Assembly: GCA_963771175.1 (NCBI GenBank)
Contig: CAVYSY010000039.1
Location: forward strand, 192,001 to 256,000
DNA length: 64,000 nt
Reading direction: 5' to 3'
From: an uncultured delta proteobacterium
GTDB lineage: Bacteria > Myxococcota > Myxococcia > Myxococcales > Myxococcaceae
The notes under the pieces were generated by a model. That model searched no databases and was not told where the DNA came from. It was given only the letters and a program-made list of their open reading frames with translations. This document shows positions 7,238-30,959 of this stretch, in pieces; position 1 is the first letter of the stretch, and each line of letters starts with the position of its first letter. The translations under genes and the position numbers were made by a program.

Positions 7238-8207
7238 TCAGGGGGGCCGGGCCAGGTACTGCGGGCCCACCCCACAGGCCTGCCGGAAGGCGCGCACGGC
7301 CTCGGCGATCTCCGTGCCCGCCTCCACCAGCCCCGCGTGGCCCGCGTCCTCGACCAGCAGCCAGCTCCGCGTGCGGCAGGGCCTGACGCATCCGCTCCAG
7401 CTCGCGCAGGGGCACGATGAGATCATTCTTCGCGGCGATGAGCTGCGTGGGCACCTCACCTGGGGCAGCACGTCCCACGAGGCGGCGCCTCCAGCAGGCC
7501 GCGCAGCATCTGCCAGTAGGCCCGCGGGTCCATGCGCTGGAGCCCCTGCATGAAGCTCGTCGATGTCCGCGCGGGGGGCCCGGGCCCGCAGCACGCCCGC
7601 AGCGCGCGACCGACCGGGTACGCCAGCCGCGAGCCAGACGAGATCCTGGACGACCGGCGCCAGCCACGGGCACCAGCGGCGTGCAGGCGTGGAAGGCGCT
7701 GGGCCAGGGTGCCGCGCCCCGCGGCACCGGAACGAGCGCACGGCTGCCCGGGTCCGGGGAGGCCGGCGCTGCCGGCGATGAGCGTCATGGCGGGCACCAG
7801 CTCGGGCCGCCGCCGGTACAGCTCCAGCAGCACCCGCACGCCCATGGAGAAGGCCGACGTGGTGCGGGGGCGGCCCGTCACCGCGAGCCATCATCGTCCT
7901 CGGTGACGCGCTCGAGGTCGTCCACGTGGACGCGCAGACGCGTAGTCCCCGCTGGCGCGACACCTCGCTGCCGCCGTGGCCCCGGTAGTCCCAGTGCACC
8001 ACCCGGTGGTCCTGCTCCAGGTCGCGCGACGATGTAGCGCCAGAAGTTCTCCGAGGTGCCGATGCCGTTGGTGAGCAGCACCCCGCGGCCGGCGAGCCCA
8101 GCGACACTCCGCTCGGTCTCCGCGGGCATCGCCCACATGGCGTGTGGTACGCGATGCGGGTGCCATCGGGGGCGAGGACGAAGCGGGTGAGCGCGGCGGT
8201 AGGGCAT
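7238..8207 (-). CDS. Alpha/beta hydrolase (frameshifted)
   Basis: APDGTRIAYH, WDYRGHG, FSMG nucleophile elbow, ND and GHAG across frames. Confidence 0.75.
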
Positions 8208-9335: not shown

Positions 9336-10138
9336 ATGCTGCGCGTGGACGCCGGAGACGCTTCGACATCGACCGGGCCGCTCGCGCACTACGCCGAGCA
9401 CGGCTACGCGCGCCTGGGCACGCGTGCTGGACGACGAGGGCCTGGCGTCGCTGCGCGAGCGCGCGGACGACCTGATGCTCGGCCGGGTGAGCTACCCGGG
9501 CTTCTTCTTCCAGATGGACGCGACCACCGGGCCGCTACGAGGACGCGCCGCTGGGGCTCGGCTGGCAGGGCCCGTCGCTCGACTACCGCAAGCTGGAGAA
9601 GCTGGAGAAGGACCCGCGCTTCCTCGCGTGGCTGGAGAACCCGCTCTTCGAGCGCATCGTCCGGGCGCGCATCCCCGGGGACATCGTGCTCTACCGCGCC
9701 ATCCTCTTCCACAAGGGCGAGCGGGCGGCAGCAACCTGCCCTGGCACCAGGACGGCGGGCAAGCTGTGGGGCCTGACCGCAGGAGCCGGAGCTGCAGCTC
9801 TGGACGGCGCTGGACGACGCGCCGCGAGGACGGCGGCTGCCTGGAGGTGGTGCCGGGGAGCCACCGCGCGGGGCTGGTGACGCCGCTCGGCGGGCGTCGT
9901 GCCGCCGGACCGGGTGGCGGCGCGCGGGCGCGGACGCGCGCGCGGTGCCGCTGCCGGTGCAGGCCGGCGAGGTGCTGCTCGTCCACAACCACGTGTGGCA
10001 CCGCTCGGGCGCGCGAGCCGCACGGGCCAGCGCCGGCGCGGCTTCTCGGCCTGCTACATGAGCGCGGACACGCGGTGCGTGCGCAAGAAGAAGGCGCCGC
10101 GCGTCTTCTTCCCGCTCTTCCGTCACGGCGCCCGCTGA
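9336..10138 (+). CDS. Phytanoyl-CoA dioxygenase (PhyH) family protein (frameshifted)
   Basis: LPWHQD, GCLEVVPGSH, HNHVWHRSG, RRGFSACYM. Confidence 0.8.
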
Positions 10139-10153
10139 GGCGTCGCGGACGCC

Positions 10154-12559
10154 CTACCCCGCCTTCAGCCGGTTCTTGCGGTACGAGGGGAGGCTGATGC
10201 GGAAGGTGCTGCCCTTGCCCACCTCGCTGGTGGCGGAGATCTCCCCGCCGAAGCCGGTGATGATGCCGTGGCAGATGGAGAGGCCGAGCCCCGTGCCCAC
10301 GCCCACCGGCTTGGTGGTGAAGAAGGGATCGAAGATGCGGTCCAGCACCTCGCGGGACATGCCGCAGCCGGTGTCCTTCACCTCGATGATGGCGTGGTCG
10401 TTCTCGGCGTGCAGCGAGACGCGGATCTCGTTCTTGTCCGACTGGCCCTGCGGGAATGGCGTGGGCGGCGTTGATGAGCAGGTTGAGGAAGACCTGACCG
10501 AAGCGGCGCCTCGCTGCCCTCGCACGAGCGGCACCTCGGACACGTCGCTTCACCACGGTGGCGCGGTGGCGCATCTCGCCGCGGGCCAGCGCCAGCGCCG
10601 AGTCGATGACGCGCCGCAGGTCCACCGCCGTGGGCTGCTCCTCGTCGCCGCGCGAGAACGTCTTCAGGTCCTGGACGATGTAGCCGGACGCGGTTGACGC
10701 CCTCGTTCGTCTCCTCCAGCACCTCCTCGCAGCTCGTCCAGGCGCCCCTTGGGCAGCTCCCCGGTGAGCGCGTGCAGCTCCTCGGTGAGGAAGGACAGGT
10801 TGGAGATGACGAAGGCGAGCGGGTTGTTGATCTCGTGGGCCACGCCCGCGGCGAGCGTACCCACCGAGGCCAGCCGATCCGCCACCACGAGGCGCGCTTG
10901 AATCTGCTTGCGCTCGGTCAGGTCGCGCGCGCTCACCAGGGTGGCGGGCTGGCCGGCGAAGACGAGCCGCAGGCTGCTGATCTCCGCCGTGACGATGCCG
11001 CCGTCGGGAGGCAGGAAGCGGATCTCCCGGACGCGGGGAGCGCCCCTGCCGGGCATGCCGTCGAGCTGGCCAGCGGCGGCGGCCCGGTCCTCCGGGTGGA
11101 CGAAGTCCAGCAGCGAGCGGCCCACCAGCTCATTGGCGGGCAGGCGCAGGAAGGCGCACGCCGAGGGGTTGACGTAGAGCAGCGGCCCGCCCCGGTGGAC
11201 GAAGATGGCCTCGGGCGAGCCCTCGATGAGGGCGCGGAAGCTCTCCTCGGAGCGGCGCAGCGCCTCCTCGGCGGCCTTGCGCTCGGTGATGTCGAAGGAC
11301 ACGCCTCCGAGGAAGCGCCGGCCCGAGCTGTCGCGGGCGATGAACCGGTAGGTGAGGAAGTGGCGCGGCTCGCCCTCGGGCGTGGGGATGACGGTCTCGG
11401 ACACCGAGGGCTGACCGGACTTGAAGGCCTGATCGTCCTGGTCCCTCAGGTGGGCCACCGTCTCCGGCGACATGATCTGCTCGTCGGGGATGGTGCTCAC
11501 GTCCACGCCGGGCGACAGCGCGAAGAAGCGCCGGAAGGGCTCGTTGACGAAGACGCGCCGGCCGGACTCGTCCTTCATGTAGGCCAGCGCCGGGTTGTTG
11601 TTGAGGAACGAGTCGAAGAGGTGCTGGCTCTCCTGCAGCGCCGTGACGATCGACGCCACCTCGGTCATCAGCGCCTGCTTCGCCGCGTGCTCGGCGGCGT
11701 TGCCCATGGCGGCCCCGAGCAGACCGGCCATCAGCTCCAGCGTGCGCTCGTCCGAGTCCACGAAGGCATACGGCACCCCCGAGGAGATGCTCACCACGCC
11801 CACCGTCTGGTTGTCGCGCTTGAGCGGCACGTTGAGCATGGAGCGGAACTTGAACTTGCGCGCCTGCTCCTGGTTGACGCGCGGATCCCGCTCGGAGTCG
11901 TCCGTCCGCAGCACCTCGCCCGTCAGCACGCAGGAGCCAGCGAAGGTGTTGGCGATGGGCAGGCGCGCGCCCTGGAACTGCGCGGAGAAGCCCGTGCCGA
12001 CGCGGTAGAACATCTCCTCGCCCTCGACGAGCGCCACGGCCGCGCCCGTCGCGCCGCAGAGGATCATCGCCCGCTCGGCGATGAGCCGCATCACCACGTC
12101 CAGATCCAGGCCGGCCAGCGCGATGTCGTTCTGCGTCTGGATGATGGCCGCCAGCCGCTCGATCTCCCCGCGCGCGGACTCCTCGTGCGTCTGCCGGCGC
12201 ATGAACGCGTAGCTGCGACGCTCGAACAGCTCCACCCGGGCGCGCACGTCCGCCGGGTGGAAGGGCGCCACCAGGTAGTCGTCCACGCCGATCTCCATCA
12301 GTGGCGTGAGCTCCTGGGCCGCCGAGCTCGCGGCCATGCCGAGCACGAACACCTCGGCGGCGCGGATCTGCGCGCGCAGCCGGCTGAACCACTCGGACTT
12401 CTCGCGGACCAGATCGGCCCCGACGATCAGCACGTCCACCAGGGAGATGGTGGCGGCCGTCACCTCGGGTCCCGGGGCGACCACGACGTCATGGCCCATT
12501 CGGGCGAGCTCCGCCCCGATGGGATGGTCACCGTCGCGACTGAGGAGGAGGAAGCGCAT
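10154..12559 (-). CDS. REC-like/GAF/PAS/PAS sensor histidine kinase (frameshifted near 10500-10720)
   Basis: [13 protein letters not shown]-box; [11 protein letters not shown]-box; [23 protein letters not shown] and two PAS segments. Confidence 0.9.
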
Positions 12560-17661: not shown

Positions 17662-17783
17662 GCTTGCTCCGGGTTGAGGCGACCGAGTCTAGCAGGAAGT
17701 GGCCGGGAGACTGTTTCCGGAGGTGAAAAAGGGGTGCGAGACACGGGCTCCCCCCGTGCCGGCTCGATGCTAGCTTGGCGGGT

Positions 17784-19446
17784 ATGAGCTTCTTCCAGGA
17801 ACCGCCGAGGCTTGGAAACCAGTACGACGACGACGCGCTGCTCCGGAGCTACCTCGCCCGGGTATTGCCGCAGGAGATGCGGGCCGGGCTGGAGGGCGAG
17901 TTCCGCGAGCTGGGCGAGCTGGGAGGCAGGTACTTCTACGAGTTCCAGCTCAGGGACCGACTGAACGAGCCCGAGCTGACGCAGTGGGACGCCTGGGGCA
18001 ACCGGGTGGACCACATCGAGGTGTCGCCGCTGTGGAAGGAGGCGGAGGCGCTGGCGGCGAAGCGGGGGCTGGTGGCGGTGGCGTACGAGCAGAAGAGCGG
18101 CGAGCTCTCGCGGGTGCACCAGTTCACGCTGAACTACCTGGTGCAGCCGTCGCTGGACGTCTACTCGTGCCCGCTGGCGATGACGGACGGGGCGGCGCGG
18201 ACGCTGCTGTCGCTGGGGAACCAGGAGCTGATCCAGCGCGCCCTGCCCCACCTGACGTCGAGGGACCCGGCGACGTTCTGGACGTCGGGGCAGTGGATGA
18301 CGGAGCGGACGGGCGGCTCGGACGTGGGGCTGACGCAGACGGTGGCGAGGAAGTCGCCCGAGGGGTGGAAGCTGTACGGAACGAAGTGGTTCACCTCGGC
18401 GACGACGGCGCAGATGGCGCTGACGCTGGGGAGGCCGGAGGGGAACGGACCGGGGGGCAAGGGGCTGGCGATCTTCTACGTGGAGACGCGAGGGGCGGAC
18501 GGGAGGCTGAACGGCATCAGCATCAACCGGCTGAAGGACAAGCTGGGGACGAGGAAGGTGCCGACGGCGGAGCTGACGCTGGACGGGACGCTGGCGGTGC
18601 CGGTGGCGGGGCTGACGGACGGCATCCGGAACATGTCGTCGATGCTGAACGTGACGCGGACGTGGAACGCGATGGGCGCGACGTGGAGCATGCGTCGGGC
18701 GCTGGCGCTGGCGAGGGACTACGCGAGCAAGCGGGTGCAGTTCGGGGCACCGCTGTCGGAGAAGCCGCTGCACGTGGACACGCTGGCGGGGCTGGAGGCC
18801 GAGTTCCACGGAGGCTTCCTGCTGGCGTTCCGGGCGGTGGAGCTGCTGGGGAAGCTGGAGGCGAGGACGGCGACGGAGGAGGAGCTGCTGCTTGCAGCGG
18901 CTGGTGACGCCGTTGGCGAAGCTGACGACGGGGCGGCAGGTGGTGCACGTGACGTCGGAGGCGGTGGAGAGCTTCGGCGGAGCGGGCTACGTGGAGGACA
19001 CGGGGCTGCCGAGGATGCTGGCGGACGCGCAGGTGCTGTCCATCTGGGAGGGGACGACGAACGTGCTCTCGCTGGACACGCTGCGGGCGATGGCGAAGGG
19101 CGGCTCGCTGGAGGCGCTGTACGCGGACGCGGAGCGGCGGCTGGGAGCGGCGAAGGACGCGGGCCTGCGGCCGTGCGTGGCGGCGGCGCACGACTCGCTG
19201 GAGAAGGCACGGGCGTGGGTGATGAAGGCGATGGAGAACCCGGCGGGGGTGGAGGCCGGGGCGCGGCGGTTCTCGCTGACGCTGGGCCGCACCTACGAAC
19301 TGGCGCTGCTGGTGGAGCACGCGCAGTGGTGCCTGGACAACGGGCACGGCCCGAGGGCCATGGCCGCGGCGCGGCGACTCATGCGCAACGGCGTGGACCT
19401 GATCGCCGACATGGACCTGGACGACTCACGACTGCTGGTGTCGTAG
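17784..19446 (+). CDS. Acyl-CoA dehydrogenase (AidB-like subfamily), frameshift near 18892
   Basis: CPLAMTDGA, GQWMTERTGGSDV, GTKWFTS, LKDKLGTR, GGAGYVED, IWEGTTNV. Confidence 0.88.
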
Positions 19447-19513: not shown

Positions 19514-20370
19514 TCAGGGCACGGGATTGCCGCGCTCTTCCGCCTGCGCTCCAGCTCGCGCGAATCGCACCATTTCCTGAAGGATGGCGGGTTGGTCGAG
19601 CACGTCATTGTGGTGCTTCCCTTCAAGAATGCGCGTGGTGGCACTCGGGAACAGCGTCCCCAGTCGCTGCCCCATGTCCACGGGAATGACCTCATCCTGC
19701 GTCCCGTGGACGATGAGCACTGGCAGCTTGAGCCCGGGTGCCTTGGCCGCACTGTCGAACGGATCCCTCACGAGCAGGCTCGCGGGGAGCCACGGGAAGA
19801 CCCTCGCCCCTACCTCCACGATCGAGGTGTAGGGCGTGATGAGCACCAGCCGCGCGCCATGGCCCCGCTTCGCCATCTCGACCGCCACGCCCGAACCGAG
19901 CGACTGCCCCTGCAGCACCGTGAGCTCCCGAGGCACGCTCAACGCTCCGTGTAGATGCTCCAGTGCGGTCTCCGCTGCGGCGTAGATGCCTGCCTCGGAA
20001 AGACCCTGCCCCGCCGCGAGCCCGTAGCCCGGATACTCCACCGCGTAGAAGCCGAGTCCCTCCTCCTGGAAGTGCTGCGCCAGCCACTCGGTGCTCGCGA
20101 GTTGCTCACCGTTGCCGTGGAAATGCACCACCGTCGGTGCCCCAACGGGCGCGGGCACATGCAGCGCGATACACCGTCGACCCCTCTGGTCCGGGAATGC
20201 GCAGGAGCGTGGCTCCGGGCAGCGATGGCTCGCGGGCCCCCGGTGGCACCGGGAATACGATCTGCCTCTGGCTGAGGAACACCAGCAGGCAGAGACCCAC
20301 GTACGCGATGACCAGCGTGGCCAGAATCAGCGAGCAGCATCCGCCTCGCCCTTTGGAGAAAACGTTCCAT
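19514..20370 (-). CDS. Alpha/beta hydrolase (ABHD17/Bem46-like), frameshift near 20170
   Basis: FHGNGE, EYPGYG, GQSLG, HGTQDEVIP, HHND. Confidence 0.85.
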
Positions 20371-20402
20371 GACGGAAGATTAACGCACCCGCGCTCCCAT
20401 CC

Positions 20403-20753
20403 CTATTCAGGATCCAAGGCCCAGGTCCCCTCTTCCCAGCGCTTCAGCGCCTCCCGAGCTTCAAAAGCAGCCAGTCCTACCCCCTTGGCGATCTCCTCCA
20501 AGACTACTTTGGCTTCCGCCGTCCGATGGCGGAGCAGGTAGACCGCAGCCATGCCTCGCACATCCACTCGTGGGTGCGTGAATAGCACGGCGAGCGCATC
20601 CCGTCCGGCATCACCCTAAGCACGCAGCTTTTTGAACGCGTCGCGACGCTTCGGGGCGTGCTTGTTTCCTGTCTTGGCGTTTCCGCGGAAGATCGCATCG
20701 ATCTGCGCCGCCGTATGCTGGGCGAATGCCTCAACAAGATCTACAAGATTCAT
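20403..20753 (-). pseudogene. DUF2019-like (SitI5-type) immunity gene with in-frame TAG
   Basis: MNLVDLVEAFAQHTAAQ...KKLRA*GDAGRDALAVLFTHPRVDVRGMAA...WEEGTWALDPE; stop at 20616-20618. Confidence 0.7.
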
Positions 20754-20783
20754 TATCGAGCCCCCTCTTCCGCAAGAGGAAAA

Positions 20784-21155
20784 TCAAAGGGGCTTGAACG
20801 TGCCCGCCTTCCACTGTTCTAGCGTCCACTCCGCTGAAAAGCCAATCAGACCGTTAGGGGCTTTAGCGAGTTCGGTAAGCACCCGTTCCCCCTCATCTGG
20901 TGCGAACTCCAAGACCGATGCAGCAACCCAGCAACGGGTGCCCAGGTCTGGATCATCGAGCAATCTCAACAACTGTCGCTGCGCATCTAGACCTCTTGCA
21001 CGCAACTCCCTGTCGATTGCGACGAGAAGATCGAACATGCGATTTCCGTCCTTTGGCTTGCCCGCATAAATGGCCCGCCACCTCTCAGCGGAAAGAATCC
21101 TGGTTTTTTCAATGAGCTGCTCCGTTGAGAGTTTCTTCACCTCTGCCTTTTTCAT
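20784..21155 (-). CDS. DUF2019-like (SitI5-type) immunity protein
   Basis: LLDDPDLGTRCWVAA, A..TLEQWKAG; ATGA overlap with the toxin stop; lower GC. Confidence 0.75.
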   Translation of the reverse strand: MKKAEVKKLSTEQLIEKTRILSAERWRAIYAGKPKDGNRMFDLLVAIDRELRARGLDAQRQLLRLLDDPDLGTRCWVAASVLEFAPDEGERVLTELAKAPNGLIGFSAEWTLEQWKAGTFKPL

Positions 21156-21943
21156 GGAATGACCCCGAACTGCCTAAGAACCTTCAACCCGAAAGCGCGC
21201 TGTTCCTCATAGGACTTCGTGCGGAGCCATTCACGCACTACCAGACCACCCGTATCCCGGGATTTGGACGAGTAAAAGGCGCTTATTGCGTCATGCTTTG
21301 ACTTCTCGATCGCAATCACATTCTCGGTGTTGTGAATGGCTTCCGGACCGAAGCGCTCGATGTTCGCCTTGCGCTGTTCGACGATGTGGTGCCAGTGCTT
21401 GCCCTCACCTGCCGGCCCCATGAAGTCCTTGAAGTCATCAAAGGACTTGAACGCACGATAGCCGTTGGGAAGAAGCCTGCCCTCCTTGGGGATCCCACTC
21501 CCGCCTGCGGAGGACTTACCACCGCCGCTCCGGGCAGACATGGCAACGGCCGTGACCGGCAGGACAACTCGGATCGTCCCCTCGGGCACGGAGACGATGA
21601 CCCGCTCGGCCCCGGTTGCCGCATCCACCATGCGCAAGCCGGCGTTGACCTCTACTGCCCTCGAGGCTTGTCCAAAGCCCGGTAGCTTTGGTGCCTTGGA
21701 CACGAGTGCCGCGGTTTCGCCTACGGCCGCCGTCCCCACCATGACGAGAATGCGCACGCTGTTGGGGCCAATGACCCGCCCGAACCGCTCGCCCGCCTCG
21801 CGTAGTTCCGCGAAGGTGGAGGCTCGCGCCGCGTCCTCGGAGAGCTGCGCATACGCCCGGATCAGGTCGAAGAATTCCCATCCGAGGTAGCCCCACATGA
21901 GCACCGTAAACGCAGCGGCCACGCCCTTCGTGACCGGCTCGGG
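21152..21943 (-). CDS. SitA5-type toxin, C-terminal part (HNH-like nuclease tip), separated from its N-terminus by an insertion
   Basis: PEPVTKGVAA...GYLG, ELREAGERFGRVIG, KLPGF, tip WHHIVEQ...HNTEN...H. Confidence 0.8.
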   Translation of the reverse strand, partial: PEPVTKGVAAAFTVLMWGYLGWEFFDLIRAYAQLSEDAARASTFAELREAGERFGRVIGPNSVRILVMVGTAAVGETAALVSKAPKLPGFGQASRAVEVNAGLRMVDAATGAERVIVSVPEGTIRVVLPVTAVAMSARSGGGKSSAGGSGIPKEGRLLPNGYRAFKSFDDFKDFMGPAGEGKHWHHIVEQRKANIERFGPEAIHNTENVIAIEKSKHDAISAFYSSKSRDTGGLVVREWLRTKSYEEQRAFGLKVLRQFGVIP

Positions 21944-21990
21944 AAAGCCCCCAACGACGCACCCCCTTAAAGACGCAGCCGTCGAGAGAT

Positions 21991-22419
21991 TTGGTGGTCA
22001 TCACCCACCCGCTCCATCCGTTCGTGGGTCGCGCATTCCCCGTGCAGCAGCGCCTGCGCTACCTCGGCCGCCCCAGCGTCGTGCTGCTGTTTCCCGACGG
22101 CCGTCTCGCGAGGGTTCCGGAGGATTGGACGGACCTGCGGCCCAGGCCCCCACCGCTCGAGCTCCGAGGGAAATGTCCGAAGCTGCACCCTGAATCGCTC
22201 CGCGAGCTGAGTGCCCTTCTCGATGACTTGAGGCATAGGTCTCAGCTCCATGACCAGGAAGGTAGTGCGTCGGACGAGAAGCGCCAAGGGCCGGTCATCG
22301 CCGGGCGCGCTCTACGCCGCACTCCCCGCGGCGGCCCGGCACGAGCTGCTGGGCGTACTGGCCGACGTGCTGCTCAAGGCCGTCACCAAGGCTCCCGCCG
22401 GAAGCGAGGCAAGCGATGA
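21991..22419 (+). CDS. DUF5372-like (Y4bD/Y4pK-like) small protein; no ATG in the integrated state
   Basis: ITHPLHPFVGRAF...VPEDWTDL; frame closed upstream by TGA at 21931-21933. Confidence 0.65.
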   Translation: MVVITHPLHPFVGRAFPVQQRLRYLGRPSVVLLFPDGRLARVPEDWTDLRPRPPPLELRGKCPKLHPESLRELSALLDDLRHRSQLHDQEGSASDEKRQGPVIAGRALRRTPRGGPARAAGRTGRRAAQGRHQGSRRKRGKR

Positions 22420-22588
22420 CCACCAAGATTCGGCCAGAGCACCTGGCCAGACCCGCGCTGGTGTACATCCGCCAGTCCACCCTGTTGCAGGTCCACGAGC
22501 ACCGGGAGTCGACCGAGCGCCAGTACGCCCTGGTGGAGCTGGCCAAGAAACTCGGCTGGGACGCCACCCAGGTCGAGGTCATCGATGA
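22250..22588 (+). CDS. Small helical ORF overlapping the recombinase start
   Basis: AALPAAARHELLGVLADVLL helix; resembles ORFs preceding this recombinase class. Confidence 0.4.
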   Translation: MTRKVVRRTRSAKGRSSPGALYAALPAAARHELLGVLADVLLKAVTKAPAGSEASDDHQDSARAPGQTRAGVHPPVHPVAGPRAPGVDRAPVRPGGAGQETRLGRHPGRGHR

Positions 22589-24784
22589 GGACCTGGGTCA
22601 GAGCGGTGCCAGTGCCGCCCGGCGCAAGGGCTTCCAGCGGCTGACGGCCGAGGTCAGCCTCGGCAAGGTGGGCGCCGTCTTGTCGCTGGAGGTGTCACGA
22701 CTGGCGCGCTCCTCGTCCGATTGGCACCGGCTGCTGGATTTGTGCGCGCTCTCCGACACGCTCATCATCGACGACGATGGCGTCTACGACGCCAACGACT
22801 TCAACGACCGGCTGGTGCTGGGCATGAAGGGCACCATGAGTGACGCCGAGCGCCACTCCATGCGCCTGCGCCTGCAAGGCGGCATCCTGCACAAGGCGAA
22901 GAAGGGCGAGCTCGTCTATCCCCCGCCCACTGGCTACGTCTTCGAGGACGGTGCGCTCGTCTTCGACCCCGACGAGCAGGTGCAGAAAGCCATCCGTCTC
23001 CTCTTCGAGCGCTTCCGCCTGGAAGGCAGTGTCAGCGGCGCCGTGCGCTACTTCACCCGCAACAAACTGCTCTTCCCCTCACGCCATGCTCACCGGGGCG
23101 CTCCGGCGGAAATTCGCTGGCACGCGCTGGACGTCCCGCGTGCCGTGTCCATCCTGCGCAATCCGGTGTACGCCGGAGCCTACGCCTGGGGCCGCAATCG
23201 CGACCGGCGCGTCCTCGTCGAAGGAGAGGTGCGACGCAAGCACGAGACGCTCCAGGAGCCGGAGCAGTGGCATGCGTTCCTGCGCGATGCGCACCCCGCG
23301 TACATCTCCTGGGAGCAGTACCTGGAGAACTTGAAGCGCCTCGAAGACAACGCCGTCAGAGGGGCGCATGTGCGTGGCCGAGGTGCGCCACGCGGAGGTC
23401 CGGCGCTGCTCCAGGGGCTGGTGCTGTGCGGCAAGTGTGGCCGGCGGATGCACCCGGTCTACTCCGTCGCCGACGACCCCAGCTACCAGTGCAGCCGGCG
23501 CCTGTACGGCGAGGGCAACTGCTGGTCCACGGTCGCGCGCCGCATTGACGACAAGATAGTCGAGACCCTGCTGACGGCTTTCGCCCCGCCCGAATTGGAC
23601 CTGTCGCTGGCGGTCCTCAAGGAGGTGGAGCGGCAGGCCGAGGAGGTCAACCGCCAGTGGAAGCTGCGCCTGGAGCGGGTGCGCTACGAGGCCCAGCGCG
23701 CCGAGCGCCAGTACAACGCCGTGGAGCCGGAGAATCGCGTGGTGGCCCGCACGCTGGAGTCGCGCTGGAACCAGAAGCTCGAGGAGCTCGCGCGGGTCGA
23801 GCATGAGTACGAGCAGGCCAGGAGCACGAGTCCGCTGGAACTCTCGGACAAGGACAAGAAGAAGATACTGGCGCTGGCGGGCGACCTGCCCGGGCTGTGG
23901 AACGCGCCGACCACGACCAACTCGGACAAGAAGCGGATACTGCGGCTGCTCATCCAGGAGGTGGTGCTCTCGCCGGTGGACGTGCCAAAGCGGGCCACTC
24001 GCATCCGCATCCTCTGGAAGACGGGAGCCATCACCGAGTTGCAAACGCCTCGGCCCACGTTTTCTGAATCCAGAAGGACGCCACCCCAGGTCATCGCCGA
24101 GATTCGCAAGCTCGCCAGGAAGCATTACAGCGATCCGCAGATAGCAGAGGAGCTCAACCGGGGTGGCTTGAAGAGCGGCCTGCGTCACGCCTTCACCCGC
24201 CGCCTGGTGGCGGGCATTCGCAAGCGACAGGGCATTCGTGCTGGACGAACTGCTGGAGGATTCAGCATCCGGGCGCCCGAGCGCGACGAGCAGGGGCTTT
24301 ATTCCATCCGCGGTCTGATCGCGCATTTCGGAGTGACGGCCCCCATGGTCCACTACTGGGTCAACCGCGGCCTGATCACCCCCGTGCACAGCCGCACGCC
24401 CATACACAAATGGAACAAGGAGCCCTTCTGGTTCGAGATGACGCCCGAATTGGAGGCGCTCCTGGCCAAGGCGCGCGACCAGGGCTACGCAGCCGGGCAA
24501 GCCGCCGCATCCGCGGTCACAGTGGCCATCCGCGCCCGCCGGCTCGTCTGCCGGACGGCCGCTACTCCACGCGCGGTCTCGTCGAGAAGTACGGAGTAAC
24601 CTGGGACACCGTGCGGTACTGGATAAAGAAGGGCATCCTCACGCCCGAGCGCGCTCTACCGAAGGGCAATTTCTGCTTCCGGCTGACCCACGAGGTGGAG
24701 CGGCACATCCAGGCCGCCCTTGCTCGAAAACGGACGCCACGCGGTCCCACGCAGCACCACCATCATCACCTCCATTCCCGCTAA
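22416..24784 (+). CDS. Large serine recombinase (resolvase, recombinase, Zn ribbon, coiled coil, tandem HTH); frameshift near 24500-24530
   Basis: ALVYIRQST catalytic Ser, EVSRLARS, ILRNPVYAG, LLQGLVLCGKCG, AERQYNAVEPENRVVARTLE. Confidence 0.9.
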
Positions 24785-24810
24785 CACAGGTGTCCTGATG
24801 CAGGTTCCGG

Positions 24811-25449
24811 GGCCAGCAAGAGCGCCATGTACGTCGCGATCGCGAGGCTGACGGTCGCCAGCACCCGCGTGGGGTCGAGCATGGCCCGCACTTCCGCGCC
24901 CACTCCTTCCAGTGCCGGTCCCACCGCCAGGGCCAGGGCAATGCTGCGCTTGTCGTCGGCTTGCAGAAAGGGACCGTCTTCCAACAGCGTCAGACAATCA
25001 CTGGGAGTGCCGCGCCGCTCGCAATAACCCCCATACGACGTCAACAGCTCCGATTGCCCTGCATCTCCACCCGAGCCGCCGGTGCCCGGCGCCAGCCTGC
25101 CGCCATGTTGCACGGGGGCGGAGGAGGCCACCCGCAGCGGAATGTTGAGCACCAGCGTCGCCAGGGCGGCATGGAACTCCGCGTCCCCAATCCGCACCGG
25201 TTCGAAGTCCGTGGGCAACCTGGCGAAGACGAGCACGCCGTTGTCCACCTCATCGCTCCGTGCCGCCGTTCGCTCCTTCGTCTCCAGGGACTCCCGAGGT
25301 GTTGGCCACTGGTCGCGATACGTCGTCAGCCGTCCACCCGGGTGCGCCCCCGTGGAACACGCCCCCAGGAGCACCAGCCCAACTAGAGCCAGCGCGCCCA
25401 CGCGAGAGCACGGTCGCTCACCAAAGGGGGGCAGATGATGAGTAGACAT
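24811..25449 (-). CDS. SitA5-type toxin lipoprotein, N-terminal part
   Basis: Lipobox LLGAC; YGGYCERRGTPSDCLTLL, DDKRSIALALA, YMALLLAP; AGGAGAGG RBS. Confidence 0.8.
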
Positions 25450-25935
25450 GGCCGCACCTCTCCTGGCGAGTCGTACGAGCTGAAACGCGCCGCTTATCCG
25501 AGGGGCCAGATGACAAGTGGTCGAGGTGCTCCCTGTCAAGCCGTCGGGACTGGTGGGGAGTCGGGTCGGTTATTCGAGTCACCCACTACGAACCACCACG
25601 GTCCGTGAGCAACTCGTGAGGAGTTCCGGCGTTCCGCGTCGCGCGCCAGGCTCGAGCGAAACCGCCCGAGACCACGAAGCGGGGAAACGTCACCCACTGC
25701 TCGACGAAGATCCGCGCCAGGACGTCGAAGGGGCCACGGAAGGGCACCGGCGCTGTCATTTCGAGACGGTGACCGCGACCCTGGAGTGCTCCCGCCAGGC
25801 CCTCGCGTGGCCAGCAGCGGCGGCCATACCGGCAAGGGCACTCCAGAGGTGACGCGAGGGGCTCCAGTGATGCGCACGCCTACATCGTACACCCATGAGA
25901 GTGCGCGGCAGTCGCCCCTTCGCGTCCACTCCGTG

Positions 25936-25983
25936 TTGCATTCGTGTCCATTCGACACTATGTTGGTGTACACAAAACACCAA
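25936..25983 (+). promoter_or_regulatory. Sigma70-like promoter overlapped by two NrtR-type GT-N7-AC palindromes
   Basis: TTGCAT-N17-TATGTT; GTGTccattcgACAC (25944-25958); TTGGTGTacacaaaACACCAA (25963-25983). Confidence 0.7.
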
Positions 25984-26000
25984 TAAGACGGAGAAGGACC

Positions 26001-26978
26001 ATGAGCATCCGGTACATGAAGGCGCCGCCGACGACGTACGTGATGCAGTTCAAGGACGGACGGGTGAAGCGCGAGGGGCCGGGCCTCTCCTTCTTCTACT
26101 GGGCGCCCACCACCACCGTGGTGTCCGTGCCGCTCGCCAGCTCGGACGTGCCCTTCGTCTTCAACGAGGTGACGCAGGACTTCCAGGCCGTCACCCTCCA
26201 GGGGCAGCTCACCTACCGGGTGGCCGACCCCAAGCTGCTCTCGGGGCTGCTGGACTACTCGGTGAAGCCCTCGGGCGAGTACGTGTCTGAGGACCCCTCG
26301 AAGCTGGAGGAGCGACTCGTCCAGTTGGCCCAGGTGCGCGCCCGCACGGTGGTGCAGTCCATGCCCCTGCGCGAGGTGCTGGTGCAGGCGGCCACCATCG
26401 AGGGCAAGGTGCTCGCGGCGCTCCGTGAGACGGAGGCGGTGAGGATGCTGGGCGTGGAGGTGCAGGGCTTCGCGCTCCTCTCGGCGCGCCCCACCCCGGA
26501 GATGGCTCGGGCCCTGGAGGCCGAGGCGCGCGAGGCCCTCCAGCGGCGCGCGGACGAGGCCATCTACGCCCGCCGCAACGCCGCCGTGGAGCAGGAGCGG
26601 CGCATCAAGGAGAGCGAGATCGCCACCGAGCTGTCCGTGGAGGCCGGCAAGCGGCAGATCCGCGAGGCGCAGATCGCCGCGGACATCGCCGTGGAGGAGC
26701 AGCGCTCGTCCTTCATGGAGCGCTGGAGCGAGAACGAGCGCAAGGCCGCCGAGGCCAAGGCCTACGCGCTGGAGAAGACGCTCGCCCCGGTGCGAGACAT
26801 GGACTGGAAGGTGCTCATGGCGGCGGCCGGCGGCGGGAACGATCCCAAGCTGAACATCGCGCTCGCCTTCCGCGAGATGGCGGAGAACGCGGGGAAGATC
26901 GGCGAGCTGAACGTGTCCCCGGACCTGCTGCGCTCGCTGCTCTCGGCCCCGTCGGGCAACCAGGGTCGTCATGGCTGA
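26001..26978 (+). CDS. SPFH/band 7 domain protein
   Basis: GLSFFYWAP, TQDFQAVTLQGQLTYRV, coiled coil AVEQERRIKESE. Confidence 0.85.
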   Translation: MSIRYMKAPPTTYVMQFKDGRVKREGPGLSFFYWAPTTTVVSVPLASSDVPFVFNEVTQDFQAVTLQGQLTYRVADPKLLSGLLDYSVKPSGEYVSEDPSKLEERLVQLAQVRARTVVQSMPLREVLVQAATIEGKVLAALRETEAVRMLGVEVQGFALLSARPTPEMARALEAEAREALQRRADEAIYARRNAAVEQERRIKESEIATELSVEAGKRQIREAQIAADIAVEEQRSSFMERWSENERKAAEAKAYALEKTLAPVRDMDWKVLMAAAGGGNDPKLNIALAFREMAENAGKIGELNVSPDLLRSLLSAPSGNQGRHG

Positions 26979-27920: not shown

Positions 27921-30900
27921 TCAGCCCGGGGGCGCGGACGCGAGCGCCTCCAGTTGCTGCACCTTCACGTTCGTCACCTTCCCTGTCTTCTCCAGCGTCC
28001 CCTGCCCCACCAGGAACAGCGCGCCGTGGATGTCCTTGCGGAACCGCGCGTACATGTCCGGCGGCACCACCAGGTTCGCGATCCCCGTCTCGTCCTCCAG
28101 CGACAGGAAGCAGAACCCCTTCGCCGTCGGCGGCATCTGCCGGCAGATGAGCATCCCGCCCACCGCCACCCGAGCCCCCGCTCGCACCCGCTCCAGCCCC
28201 GCCGCCGTCACCGCGCCCCGCTTGCGCAGCATCGGCCGCAGCAGCTCCAGCGGGTGCTTCTCCAGCGACACGCCCACCGTCTCGAAGTCCTTGCTCACCC
28301 GCTCCGCCACGTTCATCTGTGGCAGCGCCACCTCCGTCCCGTCCATCGCCATCCCGAAGAACAGGTCCATCTCCTCCAGCGGGCCCAGCGCCTGGATCTC
28401 CCACAGGGCGTCCCGCCGAGAGCCGCTGAGGCTCCCCAGCGCCCCCGCCAGCGCCAGCCGCGCCAGCTCGTGCCGGGGCGCCCGCGTCCTCCGCGCCAGC
28501 TCTCCGATGCTCGAGTACCGCTGGCCCTGCCTCAAGGTCTCCACCCGCCGCCCCGCCGCCTCCTGGAGCCCTCGCACCATCCGCAGCCCCAGTCGCAGCG
28601 CCCCACCCTCCTCCAGCGTGCAGTCCCACCCTGAGTGGTTCACGTCCACGTTCAGCACTCGCACCCCGTGCCGCTGCGCGTCCGCCACCAGCGTGTGCGG
28701 CGCGTAGAAGCCCATCGGCTGTGAGTTCAGCAGCGCCGCCGTGAAGGCCGCCGGGTAGTGGCACTTCAGCCAGGACGACGCGTACGCCAGCAGCGCGAAG
28801 CTCGCCGAGTGGCTCTCCGGGAAGCCGTAGTGCGCGAACCCGCGGAACTGGCGGAACAGCGTGTCCACGTACTCGGGCGTGTACCCCCGCGCCACTCCGC
28901 CCTCCACGAAGCGCTGGTGGAAGGGTCCCAGCCTCTCCTCCGCTCGCTTGTGGGACAGCGCCCGGCGCAGCCCGTCCGCCTCCGCCGGCGAGAAGCCCGC
29001 CACCGCCATCGCCAGCTTCATCGCCTGCTCCTGGAAGAGCGGCACCCCCAGCGTCTTCTGGAGGATCTTCCGCACGTCCTCCGACGGGTACTCCACCGGC
29101 TCCCGCCCCTCCCGCCTCCGCAGGTACGGGTGCACCATGTCCCCGACAATCGGCCCCGGGCGGATGAGCGCGATCTCCACCACCAGGTCGTAGAAGCACC
29201 GCGGCTTCAGCCTCGGCAGCATGTTCATCTGCGCCCGGCTCTCGATCTGGAACACCCCGATCGAGTCCGCGTTGCACAGCATCTCGTAGACCTGGGGGTC
29301 CTCCGCCGGAATCGTGGCCAGCGTCAGCTCGCGCCCGTAGTGCTCCTTGATGAACGTCAGGCACTTCGCCAGCGCCGTCAGCATCCCGAGCCCCAGCAGG
29401 TCCACCTTCAGGACGCCCACCGCCTCCAGGTCGTCCTTCTCCCACTGCACCACCGTGCGGCCCTTCATCGCCGCGTTCTCCACCGGGATCATCTCCACCA
29501 GTGGCTCGCGCGTGATCACGAACCCGCCCACGTGGATGGAGAGGTGCCTCGGGCAGCTCTCGATCTCCTGCGCCAGCGCGAGCGTCTGCCGCACCCGCCG
29601 GTCCTCCTCCGACAGCCCCACCTCCTTCAGCAGCTCGGTCGACATCTCGCCGCCGTGCGAGCCCGCCACCTTCGCCAGCCGGTCCACCTGGTCCAATGAC
29701 AGCCCGAGCGCCTTCCCCACCTCGCGCAGCGCCAGCCGCCCCCGGTAGCAGATGACCTCGCACACCATCCCCGCCCGGTGCCGGCCGTGCTTCTCGTAGA
29801 CGTACTGAAGGACCTCCTCGCGCCGCTCGTGCTCGAAGTCCACGTCGATGTCCGGCGGCTCCTTGCGCTCCATGCTCAGGAAGCGCTCGAAGAGCAGCCC
29901 CATCCGCACCGGATCGATCGCCGTGACTCCCAGCGCGTAGCAGACCGCCGAGTTCGCCGCGCTCCCTCGCCCCTGGCACAGAATCCCCCGCGAGCGCGCG
30001 TACCGGACGATGTCCCAGATGGCCAGGAAGTATCCCGCGAAGTCCAGCGCCGCGATGAGCTTCAGCTCGTGCTCGATCTGCTTCACCACCTCGGGTGGGA
30101 CGCCTCCCGGGTAGCGCACCTGGAGCCCCTGGTACGTCAGCTCGCGCAGCCACGTCGCCGTCGAGTGTCCCGGCGGTAAGTCCTCCTCCGAGAAGTGGTA
30201 GCGCAGCCCATCCAGCGTCGCGTGGCAGCGGCTCGCCAGCTCCAGCGTGCGCTCCAGCGCCTCGGGGCAGTCCGCGAACAGCCGCGCCATCTCCTCGGGC
30301 CCCTTCAGCGTCCGCTCCGCGTTGGGCAGCCGCCGCGTCCCGAGCTGCCCCAGCGTCGTCTTGTGCCGGATGGCCGTGAGCACGTCCTGCAGCGGCTGGC
30401 GGCTCCGGTGGTGCGTGTGCACGTCGTTGTGCGCGCACAGCGGCGCCCCGAGTGCCTTCGCCAGCGCCCGCGATTGGGCCACCCGCGCCTCGTCCCCCGA
30501 GGACAACGAGCGGCTCACGCCCACGTAGAAGCGCTCCGGGAAGGCCTCGGCCAGTGGGGCCACCTTCTCCGCGGACACCGGGTGCGGCAGGAGCGCCAGC
30601 AGGCCCTGGTTGCCCTCCGCCAGCTCACGCCAGGGCAGGCCCGCCTCGCCCTTCGGGTGCATCATCCGGCTCTTGGAGATGAGCCGGCTCAGGTTCGCGT
30701 AGCCCGCCGCGTCCTGCGCGTACACCACCACGCTCGGGCCATCCATGAGCGTCAGCTCGCTGGCCAACAGGAACTTGATGCCCGCCTCCCTCGCCGCGAG
30801 GTGCGCCTTCACCGCCCCGTACAGTCCGTCCCCGTCCGCCAGCGCCACCGCGGCCAGCCCCTGAGCCGCCGCTGCCTGGATCAGTTCCTCGGGGTGCGAG

Positions 30901-30959
30901 GCCCCGCGCAGAAACGAAAAATTCGAGCGGCAGACGAGCTCGGCGTACACGCTCGCCAC
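27921..30959 (-). CDS. dnaE2: Error-prone DNA polymerase DnaE2 (ImuC)
   Basis: SNFSFLRGASHPEEL, GRGSAANS, EPPDIDVDFEH, YGFPESHSASF, C-terminal OB fold. Confidence 0.95.
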   Translation of the reverse strand: MASVYAELVCRSNFSFLRGASHPEELIQAAAAQGLAAVALADGDGLYGAVKAHLAAREAGIKFLLASELTLMDGPSVVVYAQDAAGYANLSRLISKSRMMHPKGEAGLPWRELAEGNQGLLALLPHPVSAEKVAPLAEAFPERFYVGVSRSLSSGDEARVAQSRALAKALGAPLCAHNDVHTHHRSRQPLQDVLTAIRHKTTLGQLGTRRLPNAERTLKGPEEMARLFADCPEALERTLELASRCHATLDGLRYHFSEEDLPPGHSTATWLRELTYQGLQVRYPGGVPPEVVKQIEHELKLIAALDFAGYFLAIWDIVRYARSRGILCQGRGSAANSAVCYALGVTAIDPVRMGLLFERFLSMERKEPPDIDVDFEHERREEVLQYVYEKHGRHRAGMVCEVICYRGRLALREVGKALGLSLDQVDRLAKVAGSHGGEMSTELLKEVGLSEEDRRVRQTLALAQEIESCPRHLSIHVGGFVITREPLVEMIPVENAAMKGRTVVQWEKDDLEAVGVLKVDLLGLGMLTALAKCLTFIKEHYGRELTLATIPAEDPQVYEMLCNADSIGVFQIESRAQMNMLPRLKPRCFYDLVVEIALIRPGPIVGDMVHPYLRRREGREPVEYPSEDVRKILQKTLGVPLFQEQAMKLAMAVAGFSPAEADGLRRALSHKRAEERLGPFHQRFVEGGVARGYTPEYVDTLFRQFRGFAHYGFPESHSASFALLAYASSWLKCHYPAAFTAALLNSQPMGFYAPHTLVADAQRHGVRVLNVDVNHSGWDCTLEEGGALRLGLRMVRGLQEAAGRRVETLRQGQRYSSIGELARRTRAPRHELARLALAGALGSLSGSRRDALWEIQALGPLEEMDLFFGMAMDGTEVALPQMNVAERVSKDFETVGVSLEKHPLELLRPMLRKRGAVTAAGLERVRAGARVAVGGMLICRQMPPTAKGFCFLSLEDETGIANLVVPPDMYARFRKDIHGALFLVGQGTLEKTGKVTNVKVQQLEALASAPPG

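Follow-up and report, generated by a model that had tools for sequence, protein, structure and literature searches.

The DNA analysed here, hereafter the window, is a stretch of 64,000 nucleotides from contig CAVYSY010000039.1 of an uncultured delta proteobacterium (Myxococcaceae), and coordinates are positions within this window unless another locus is named. On its minus strand the window carries sitA5, a lipoprotein-toxin gene that is interrupted by a 2,867-bp insert at 21944-24810 (Table 1). SitA toxins, which serve in kin discrimination, are known, as a family, for TraA/TraB-dependent transfer via outer membrane exchange; PMC8546572 describes them as a "barcode" deciding which myxobacteria can merge and gives 25-80 sitAI loci per genome. 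An earlier interpretation made from the letters alone (the sequence-only reading) had proposed that an element with a serine recombinase divides a SitA5-type toxin gene in two, and that deleting the insert yields a continuous lipoprotein of 476 amino acids (aa). Both proposals held, as the two gene parts match abutting stretches of one SitA5 profile, the insert encodes recombinase domains, and the scripted join described below is in frame.

Table 1. Features of the interrupted sitA5 locus, with positions in the window.
Feature	Position	Strand	Description
DUF2019 fragment, 61 aa	20403..20588	-	PF09450, profile positions 54-87 only, E 0.0081, under the family cut-off
DUF2019 open reading frame (ORF), 123 aa	20784..21155	-	PF09450, E 1.8e-5; start overlaps the sitA5 stop by 4 nt
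sitA5, 3' part	21152..21943	-	263 codons and stop; end of the escort domain and C-terminal toxin domain
Putative 2-bp core, host-side copy	21942..21943		GG on the plus strand, CC on the coding strand; its twin, 24809-24810, forms the element's last two bases
Integrative element, 2,867 bp	21944..24810	+	DUF5372 gene and large serine recombinase gene; similarity to L001-L010 ends here
DUF5372 small protein, 142 aa	21991..22419	+	TTG start; PF17342, E 5.4e-9
Large serine recombinase, frame A	22416..24599	+	727-codon ORF; residues 1-695 match 789-aa relatives, last 32 out of frame
Frameshift region of the recombinase gene	24489..24511	+	Compared with L001 and the other copies, one base gained and two lost (net -1)
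Recombinase C-terminal piece, frame B	24512..24784	+	Matches P0121 residues 700-789; second MerR-like helix-turn-helix (PF13411, E 6.9e-5), His-rich end
sitA5, 5' part	24811..25449	-	213 codons; signal peptide, lipobox-like LLGAC, first two thirds of the SitA5 escort domain

From an ATG at 25449, the ORF of the N-half runs to ...YMALLLA-PEP and continues through six codons of the insert (tail ...ASGHLC) to a stop at 24781-24783. For the C-half, the open frame follows a pair of TGA codons near 22000, contains ...PEPVTKGVAA from 21943 onward and ends in a stop at 21152. The NCBIfam profile NF050093 (SitA5_escort, 262 positions) matched the N-half over profile positions 24-187 (E 3.1e-28, 99.0 bits) and the C-half over positions 182-262 (E 2.4e-27, 96.1 bits). 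Because these matches abut in the profile, jointly covering positions 24-262, the two halves are adjacent parts of one domain, and each stays below the 160-bit cut-off of NF050093 because it contains half a domain. Joining 25449-24811 to 21943-21152 by script gave 1,431 nt in frame, with 476 codons and no internal stop. The lipoprotein signal of the product, read from the translation, is ...LVLLGAC (residues 25-31 from the ATG at 25449), which we take to be its lipobox.

The sequence-only reading had also suggested looking for uninterrupted alleles in relatives, and four homologs indeed read across the junction without a break: P0002 (468 aa), P0004 (478 aa), P0006 (474 aa) and P0016 (476 aa). 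At the junction, the residues of P0002 are identical to those of the rejoined product (...YMALLLAPEPVTKGVAAAF...), P0006 has one difference, P0004 has two extra residues, and P0016 differs more. Over its length, the rejoined product is 88.0% identical to P0004 (419/476 aligned residues, one 2-residue gap) and 84.6% identical to P0002 (396/468, gap-free), an uninterrupted relative that reaches 92% identity across the C-half. The further claim that no other lesion is visible stood for both toxin halves; the recombinase gene inside the insert carries a frameshift, discussed below, which that reading had missed.

A scan of one genome per species detected 61 loci that encode relatives. Ten of these are close (L001-L010, with 77-98% identity of the large serine recombinase over the best segment); they come from other Archangiaceae and Myxococcaceae genomes and have matching ends. 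For eight of these close loci, the DNA ceases to resemble the window at 21935-21945 on the left and at 24808-24810 on the right; L009 is a stand-alone contig. Similarity enters the flanks only where these are also sitA5, namely fully in L004, on both sides in L002 and on the left in L010 (left-hand stops at 21915 and 21768). The insert bounds that had been read from the broken frame are the points where similarity to these ten independent element copies ends.

The same comparison revealed a dinucleotide common to both junctions. All ten copies compared have, immediately outside the left end, the same two bases with which the right end closes, and both pairs vary together among copies (GG in six, AA in three and GA in one); L001 entered this comparison without a right flank, owing to a contig end. 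The element junctions of the copies compared showed no target duplication. We infer from these alignments that crossover takes place at a 2-bp core shared by element and target, in a conservative exchange; such a core would leave an identical dinucleotide at both junctions without duplication, as observed.

Several lines of evidence bear on the mobility of the element. Three copies reside in one Cystobacter fuscus chromosome and two, 99.9% identical (2867/2869), in one Archangium gephyra contig, and several relatives occupy contigs of element size (e.g., 2846, 2864, 2863, 2869, 2865 and 2862 bp). A repeat search within 21800-24950 found no terminal repeats of note. The phage collection held no match to the element, and in the plasmid collection 238 records matched the recombinase gene partially (coverage of at most 21%, identity of 60-80%). 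Judged by its close copies in other genomes and their shared ends, the insert is a mobile element.

Its two genes fill nearly all of the element, leaving ~47 non-coding bp on the left side and 26 on the right, and the stop of the DUF5372 gene overlaps the start of the recombinase gene (ATGA). The recombinase has its domains in the order catalytic domain (Resolvase, PF00239, residues 15-165, E 1.2e-20), recombinase domain (Recombinase, PF07508, E 5.5e-14), zinc ribbon (Zn_ribbon_recom, PF13408, E 3.9e-8) and C-terminal MerR-like helix-turn-helix (HTH) modules; DUF4368 gave no match at E <= 0.01. Across 35 aligned recombinases, Y17, R19 and S21 (Y-x-R-x-S) as well as C338, C341, C359 and C369 are invariant. 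The closest relatives measure 780-791 aa, and the closest solved structure by sequence is that of the SPbeta integrase SprA/YokA (E 1.2e-17). Just inside the right end of the element, at 24755-24784 on the plus strand, lies the conserved His-rich tail of this recombinase family (...QHHHHH.HSR).

An ORF for the small DUF5372 protein precedes the recombinase at each of the ten close loci. Many of the distant relatives also have a DUF5372-like ORF there; Pfam recognised the family in 8 of 46 upstream ORFs at E <= 0.001, and alignment added more. The ratio of nonsynonymous to synonymous substitution rates (dN/dS) takes values of 0.13-0.24 in the recombinase gene and of 0.18-0.31 in the DUF5372 core, showing that both element genes are under purifying selection. 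By position and conservation, the DUF5372 protein is a candidate partner of the recombinase, which it may serve as an accessory or directionality factor (the biology of recombination directionality factors is treated in PMC12286644). Structural comparison offered little functional information: a fold search with the DUF5372 model gave no match at E <= 0.001, and its N-terminal 47 residues superpose on KOW/SH3-like barrels (root-mean-square deviation ~2.4). The profile itself is widespread, with 4,748 representative clusters at E <= 0.001, and the literature searched contains no mention of "DUF5372". In the 3' third of the gene (22246-22416, encoding a basic tail), dN/dS exceeds 1, and dS against L005 is 0.077 compared with 0.635 in the core. 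This pattern suggests constraint at the nucleotide level, e.g., by a recombinase promoter, a ribosome-binding site or an overlapping frame.

Relative to the 789-aa relatives, the recombinase of the window breaks frame after codon 695, and its last 94 residues are replaced by 32 out-of-frame residues. The equivalent of 24489-24511 is a single frame in eight of the ten close loci (in L009, as far as the contig reaches). These observations raise the possibility of a dead end, in which a recombinase disabled by the frameshift would leave the element unable to move and sitA5 a permanent pseudogene heading to decay; moreover, the window contains no second copy that could act in trans. Against this, natural relatives of 693-717 aa are without the second HTH module, so that the truncated recombinase keeps a naturally occurring domain set; P0159 (694 aa, 63% identical), one such relative, stops at the very position of the frame break in the window. 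Any further copies outside the window could likewise act in trans, and the toxin halves show no decay. Finally, the plus-strand gene at 17775-19446, which encodes an AidB-like acyl-CoA dehydrogenase, is itself frameshifted near 18850-18900, with profile positions 2-79 of Acyl-CoA_dh_1 in one frame and positions 87-147 together with ACDH-11_C in another. This lesion, in a gene of housekeeping type 5 kb away, may mark a pseudogene or an assembly indel error; its presence makes it likelier that assembly indel errors caused both frameshifts. Taken together, we regard a dead end as unlikely, though a serious possibility.

We also considered whether L001, L003 and L004 share the window's frameshift, and ruled this out: L001 is intact, and L003 and L004 carry a different lesion, a +1 at codon 475. 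In these two loci (Archangium gephyra PVMSAZ, near 9425), both +1 insertions fall at one CTGGAG site but differ in the base gained (G and A), which most likely reflects a systematic sequencing error and not a shared mutation.

The genomic positions of the close copies speak to how the element selects its targets. Ten copies, including that of the window, have at least one flank; four of them lie in SitA5 genes, four in a second lipoprotein family, one in a DUF4230 gene (L001) and one (L003) in the intergenic DNA upstream of an mlaE-like gene, at a distance of 18 bp. In the window and in L002, L004 and L010, the split of NF050093 falls at profile positions 182-190 each time. The four genes are different alleles; between L004 and the window, the elements are 95.7% identical, compared with only 71.1% and 66.7% for the sitA5 flanks. 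The insertion motif, L-A-P-E-P-V, is near-invariant in the SitA5 family, its P, P and K columns reaching at least 90%.

Protein records extend this set of interrupted alleles. A search with the N-half listed 48 proteins, of which 45 were inspected, and six of these, the window's included, end in the element-derived tail ...PEPASGHLC. The five other tailed proteins share no more than 73% identity with the four alleles established at the DNA level. Counting DNA and protein records together, at least nine different sitA5 alleles are interrupted at the same escort-domain motif. One of the tailed proteins, F0U61_29265, lies two locus tags from F0U61_29255 (P0013), which consists of a C-half only.

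These records also bear on whether the element was misplaced into sitA5 during assembly. Its presence in several copies in related genomes, often as a stand-alone contig, would favor such an artefact, as would the at least one other probable indel error of the window. Yet the same two junctions occur at the same escort-domain position in the independent assemblies of L002, L004 and L010, five further protein records carry the read-through tail, and the junctions share a core dinucleotide, as expected of a real integration. We thus consider an assembly artefact very improbable.

L005-L008, a sister lineage in which the core is AA or GA, split the second lipoprotein family in frame. Members of this family have ~725 aa and an LAGC lipobox, and the element bounds lie at ~7529 and ~10397 (in L008, at 220 and 3087). 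The family has no Pfam or NCBIfam match. Among look-alikes in a structure atlas, its C-terminal 130 residues resemble restriction-endonuclease-fold toxin domains (scores 0.80-0.87), a resemblance at the level of a lead only. It is possibly a second toxin family targeted by these elements.

We interpret the insert as a selfish site-specific element that homes recurrently into conserved motifs of multi-copy genes, here the sitA5 paralogs, and not as a switch evolved by the host; we assign this interpretation a probability of roughly 0.8. Accordingly worded as a mechanism, the compact two-gene element would integrate by conservative site-specific recombination at a 2-bp core (GG/CC) within the L-A-P-E-P-V codons, dividing an otherwise intact sitA5-sitI toxin-immunity operon. 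The N-piece retains the lipoprotein signal without the toxin domain, and the C-piece is without a signal peptide; with its parts so separated, the toxin is most likely off, while the downstream candidate immunity ORF is untouched. Excision would restore sitA5 exactly, because serine recombination neither adds nor removes bases. The targets would be abundant and individually dispensable, here the numerous sitA5 paralogs found in Archangiaceae. Site choice appears to lie with the element and not with the host, because the targets spread to a DUF4230 gene, to intergenic DNA and, in distant relatives described below, to istB.

The sequence-only reading had offered two explanations, a reversible switch or a recent parasitic insertion. 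The second is favored, in the sharper form of recurrent homing, and no sign of a host-programmed switch was found. In such a switch, the host would exploit excision in a subpopulation, or on a signal such as development, stress or contact, to re-arm the toxin. An exactly rebuilt ORF upon excision, toxin halves and an immunity ORF without other lesion, a conserved small partner protein that could be a directionality factor, and occupation of the same site in at least nine alleles are all in keeping with this idea, and the gene-restoring large serine recombinase elements skin/sigK, SPbeta/spsM and gin/gerE (PMC5595907) provide precedents. The target choice, however, follows the element, with the same lineage present in a DUF4230 gene and in intergenic DNA and relatives in istB. 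Closely related alleles such as P0002 are uninterrupted, and the elements in L001, L003 and L004 are 95.7-96.8% identical to that of the window, far above the sitA5 flanks, pointing to recent independent insertions. Furthermore, the window's recombinase is frameshifted, and tests that are weak for this purpose revealed neither a promoter-like site in 20300-25900, where terminators were at chance level, nor an Rfam family in 20000-26000. A host-exploited switch is therefore improbable. Occasional excision of the element is compatible with these observations; no tie to a host programme was found.

Several points nonetheless weigh against recurrent homing by a selfish element, or limit how far it extends to this copy. 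The imperfect inverted-repeat arms typical of att sites are weakly developed: assessed in an ungapped register, symmetry between the two element ends is modest (9-12 of 24 positions match versus ~6.5 by chance; p 0.004-0.18), and the target arms show no symmetry above the null (3-9 of 24). The element occurs as a single copy within the 64-kb window, and the mobility of this particular copy is deduced from its relatives. The frameshift removes the second HTH module, which all eight single-frame close copies keep, and given this break after codon 695, the odds that the window copy is still autonomous are about even. Loss of toxin function is most likely, as deduced from the arrangement of the two pieces, and the cost to the host of homing into toxin genes would presumably be low. 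Moreover, the intact state of both toxin halves and the immunity ORF fits a recent insertion equally with a maintained, excisable state.

Beyond the myxobacteria, the scan reached distant relatives in Acidobacteriota, Actinomycetota and Pseudomonadota, with recombinases that are 35-45% identical. These units measure 2.6-2.95 kb and are repeated within genomes at up to 99.7% identity. We examined the flanks of nine such loci, five of which (L025, L045, L030, L039 and L029) have flanks matching IstB of IS21, with a clean split in three; the IstB_IS21 profile is split at position ~100 (the Walker A region) in L025 and L045, and at position 180 (the Walker B region) in L030. The literature searched contains nothing on serine-recombinase elements in istB, and these distant relatives look like an element family that parasitises another mobile element. 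In L016 and L018, two copies that are 99.6% identical in one Solirubrobacterales genome, the left flank is a group II intron reverse transcriptase (RT)/maturase ORF that begins at RVT_1 profile position 79, at the boundary near 7492; the N-terminal part of the RT had no match in the right flanks of these loci, and a "split RT" rests on the left flank. Of the remaining two loci, one is at the P-loop end of a helicase-like gene, and the flanks of the other, L013, yielded no identification. Target class tracks the clade of the recombinase in a 22-sequence tree.

Two further observations concern these distant units. In L029, a second DUF5372-like ORF and recombinase-like DNA follow directly after the element (10261-10794 and beyond), and may represent a tandem or nested second copy. 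On a Microvirga plasmid, the gene pair of such a unit (DUF5372 and recombinase), labelled only "hypothetical protein" and "recombinase family protein", adjoins an IS21 istA.

Among characterized systems, skin (in sigK), SPbeta (in spsM) and gin (in gerE) resemble the element in chemistry and outcome, sharing with it a large serine recombinase, a position within a coding gene, the absence of target duplication and precise excision, here in silico. These elements are large, each sits in one dedicated sporulation gene, and excision takes place in a terminal cell type; gin, from Bacillus cereus gerE, has 31 genes and, also a non-phage element, needs a small partner, GirX, together with its recombinase GirC (PMC5595907). 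In contrast, the element described here has two genes in 2.9 kb, is multi-copy and occupies many toxin alleles as well as unrelated sites; it is not dedicated to one host gene. The comparison with skin and sigK, drawn in the sequence-only reading, hence applies to the chemistry (a large serine recombinase and conservative recombination) and not to a dedicated developmental role.

The multi-targeting, transposase-type recombinases (TndX/TnpX-like) of Durrant et al. 2022 are similar in that close relatives are found in several target genes (PMC10083194). The multi-targeting clade is marked by DUF4368 and by AT-rich, relaxed sites, whereas our element combines one or two MerR-like HTH modules and a DUF5372 partner with specific coding motifs. 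The text of eight supplementary files of PMC10083194 contains no mention of Archangium, Cystobacter, Corallococcus, Myxococc*, DUF5372 or MerR.

Another point of comparison is the IS607 family. The recombinase of IS607 elements has an HTH of MerR type, as does that of the element here. In IS607 the enzyme is TnpA, a small serine recombinase that binds DNA through an N-terminal domain and shows almost no target specificity beyond GG. The present element, by contrast, encodes a large serine recombinase, 789 aa long where its relatives are intact, with recombinase and zinc-ribbon domains and C-terminal HTH modules, whose specificity suffices to pick one motif in a gene family; a small recombinase with an N-terminal DNA-binding domain, the mark of IS607, is thus not what the element encodes. 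The likeness extends to the element's tiny two-gene organization, the absence of terminal inverted repeats and of target duplication, and exchange at GG (PMC6188088).

The interrupted gene has in common with other sitA5 genes a lipoprotein signal, the SitA5 escort domain, a nuclease-like module at the C-terminus and a small overlapping ORF downstream; it differs in being interrupted. No report of sitA genes split by recombinase elements was found in the literature searched. Repeated, scarless knock-out of sitA5 with the immunity ORF kept would be a so far unreported route of toxin gain and loss. Carriers of an interrupted sitA5 would be immune non-killers, a state that is reversible in principle. 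The strategy would be one of parasitising abundant, individually dispensable targets. The element is also about as small as large-serine-recombinase elements can be, and its distant relatives are small too. Together, the related recombinases, with known natural targets from independent insertions and candidate partners, offer material for studying how specificity changes in large serine recombinases.

A broader idea, which we put forward as doubtful, is that DUF5372 and large serine recombinase pairs make up an unnamed, multi-phylum class of "homing insertion sequences" of 2.6-2.95 kb. Each lineage would be settled on a conserved motif of multi-copy, often selfish, genes (the Walker A and B regions of istB, probably the group II intron RT, and the SitA5 escort domain, with the second, probably nuclease-tipped, lipoprotein family also targeted), and DUF5372 would be the obligatory, direction-setting partner. 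In myxobacteria, such elements would act as reversible on/off cassettes for toxins, rewriting the repertoire without loss of immunity or of sequence.

We then turn to the toxin itself, whose C-terminal tip had been called HNH-like. In this domain W83, H84, H85, N93, N104 and H116 are invariant and H103 is near-invariant, giving the pattern W-H-H...N...H-N...H. The Pfam family HNH_2 (PF13391) matches 7 of 34 toxin homologs (best E 0.0018), the window copy not being among them. A fold search of the PDB with the AF2 model of the domain (pLDDT 79.7) gave no match at E <= 0.001, with several HNH nucleases among the weak hits, and a profile search of PDB sequences returned chance-level matches only. 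The conserved pattern and the HNH_2 matches thus speak for the earlier description and the lack of a significant fold match against it, leaving an HNH-type tip plausible, not established.

Downstream of sitA5, the 123-aa DUF2019 ORF is intact and, by its position, is a candidate cognate immunity gene (sitI), following the arrangement of sitAI operons described in PMC8546572. The shorter DUF2019 fragment is a possible remnant of an orphan or older immunity gene or cassette. The sitAI locus is flanked by genes of housekeeping type, with an SPFH/Band 7 gene at 25944-26978 on the plus strand and a DnaE-type polymerase III alpha gene at 27921-30959 on the minus strand, and shows no obvious island. 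The region 20400-21400, which includes the 61-aa DUF2019 fragment downstream of the candidate immunity gene, has a G+C content of 0.53-0.59, compared with ~0.68-0.70 around it.

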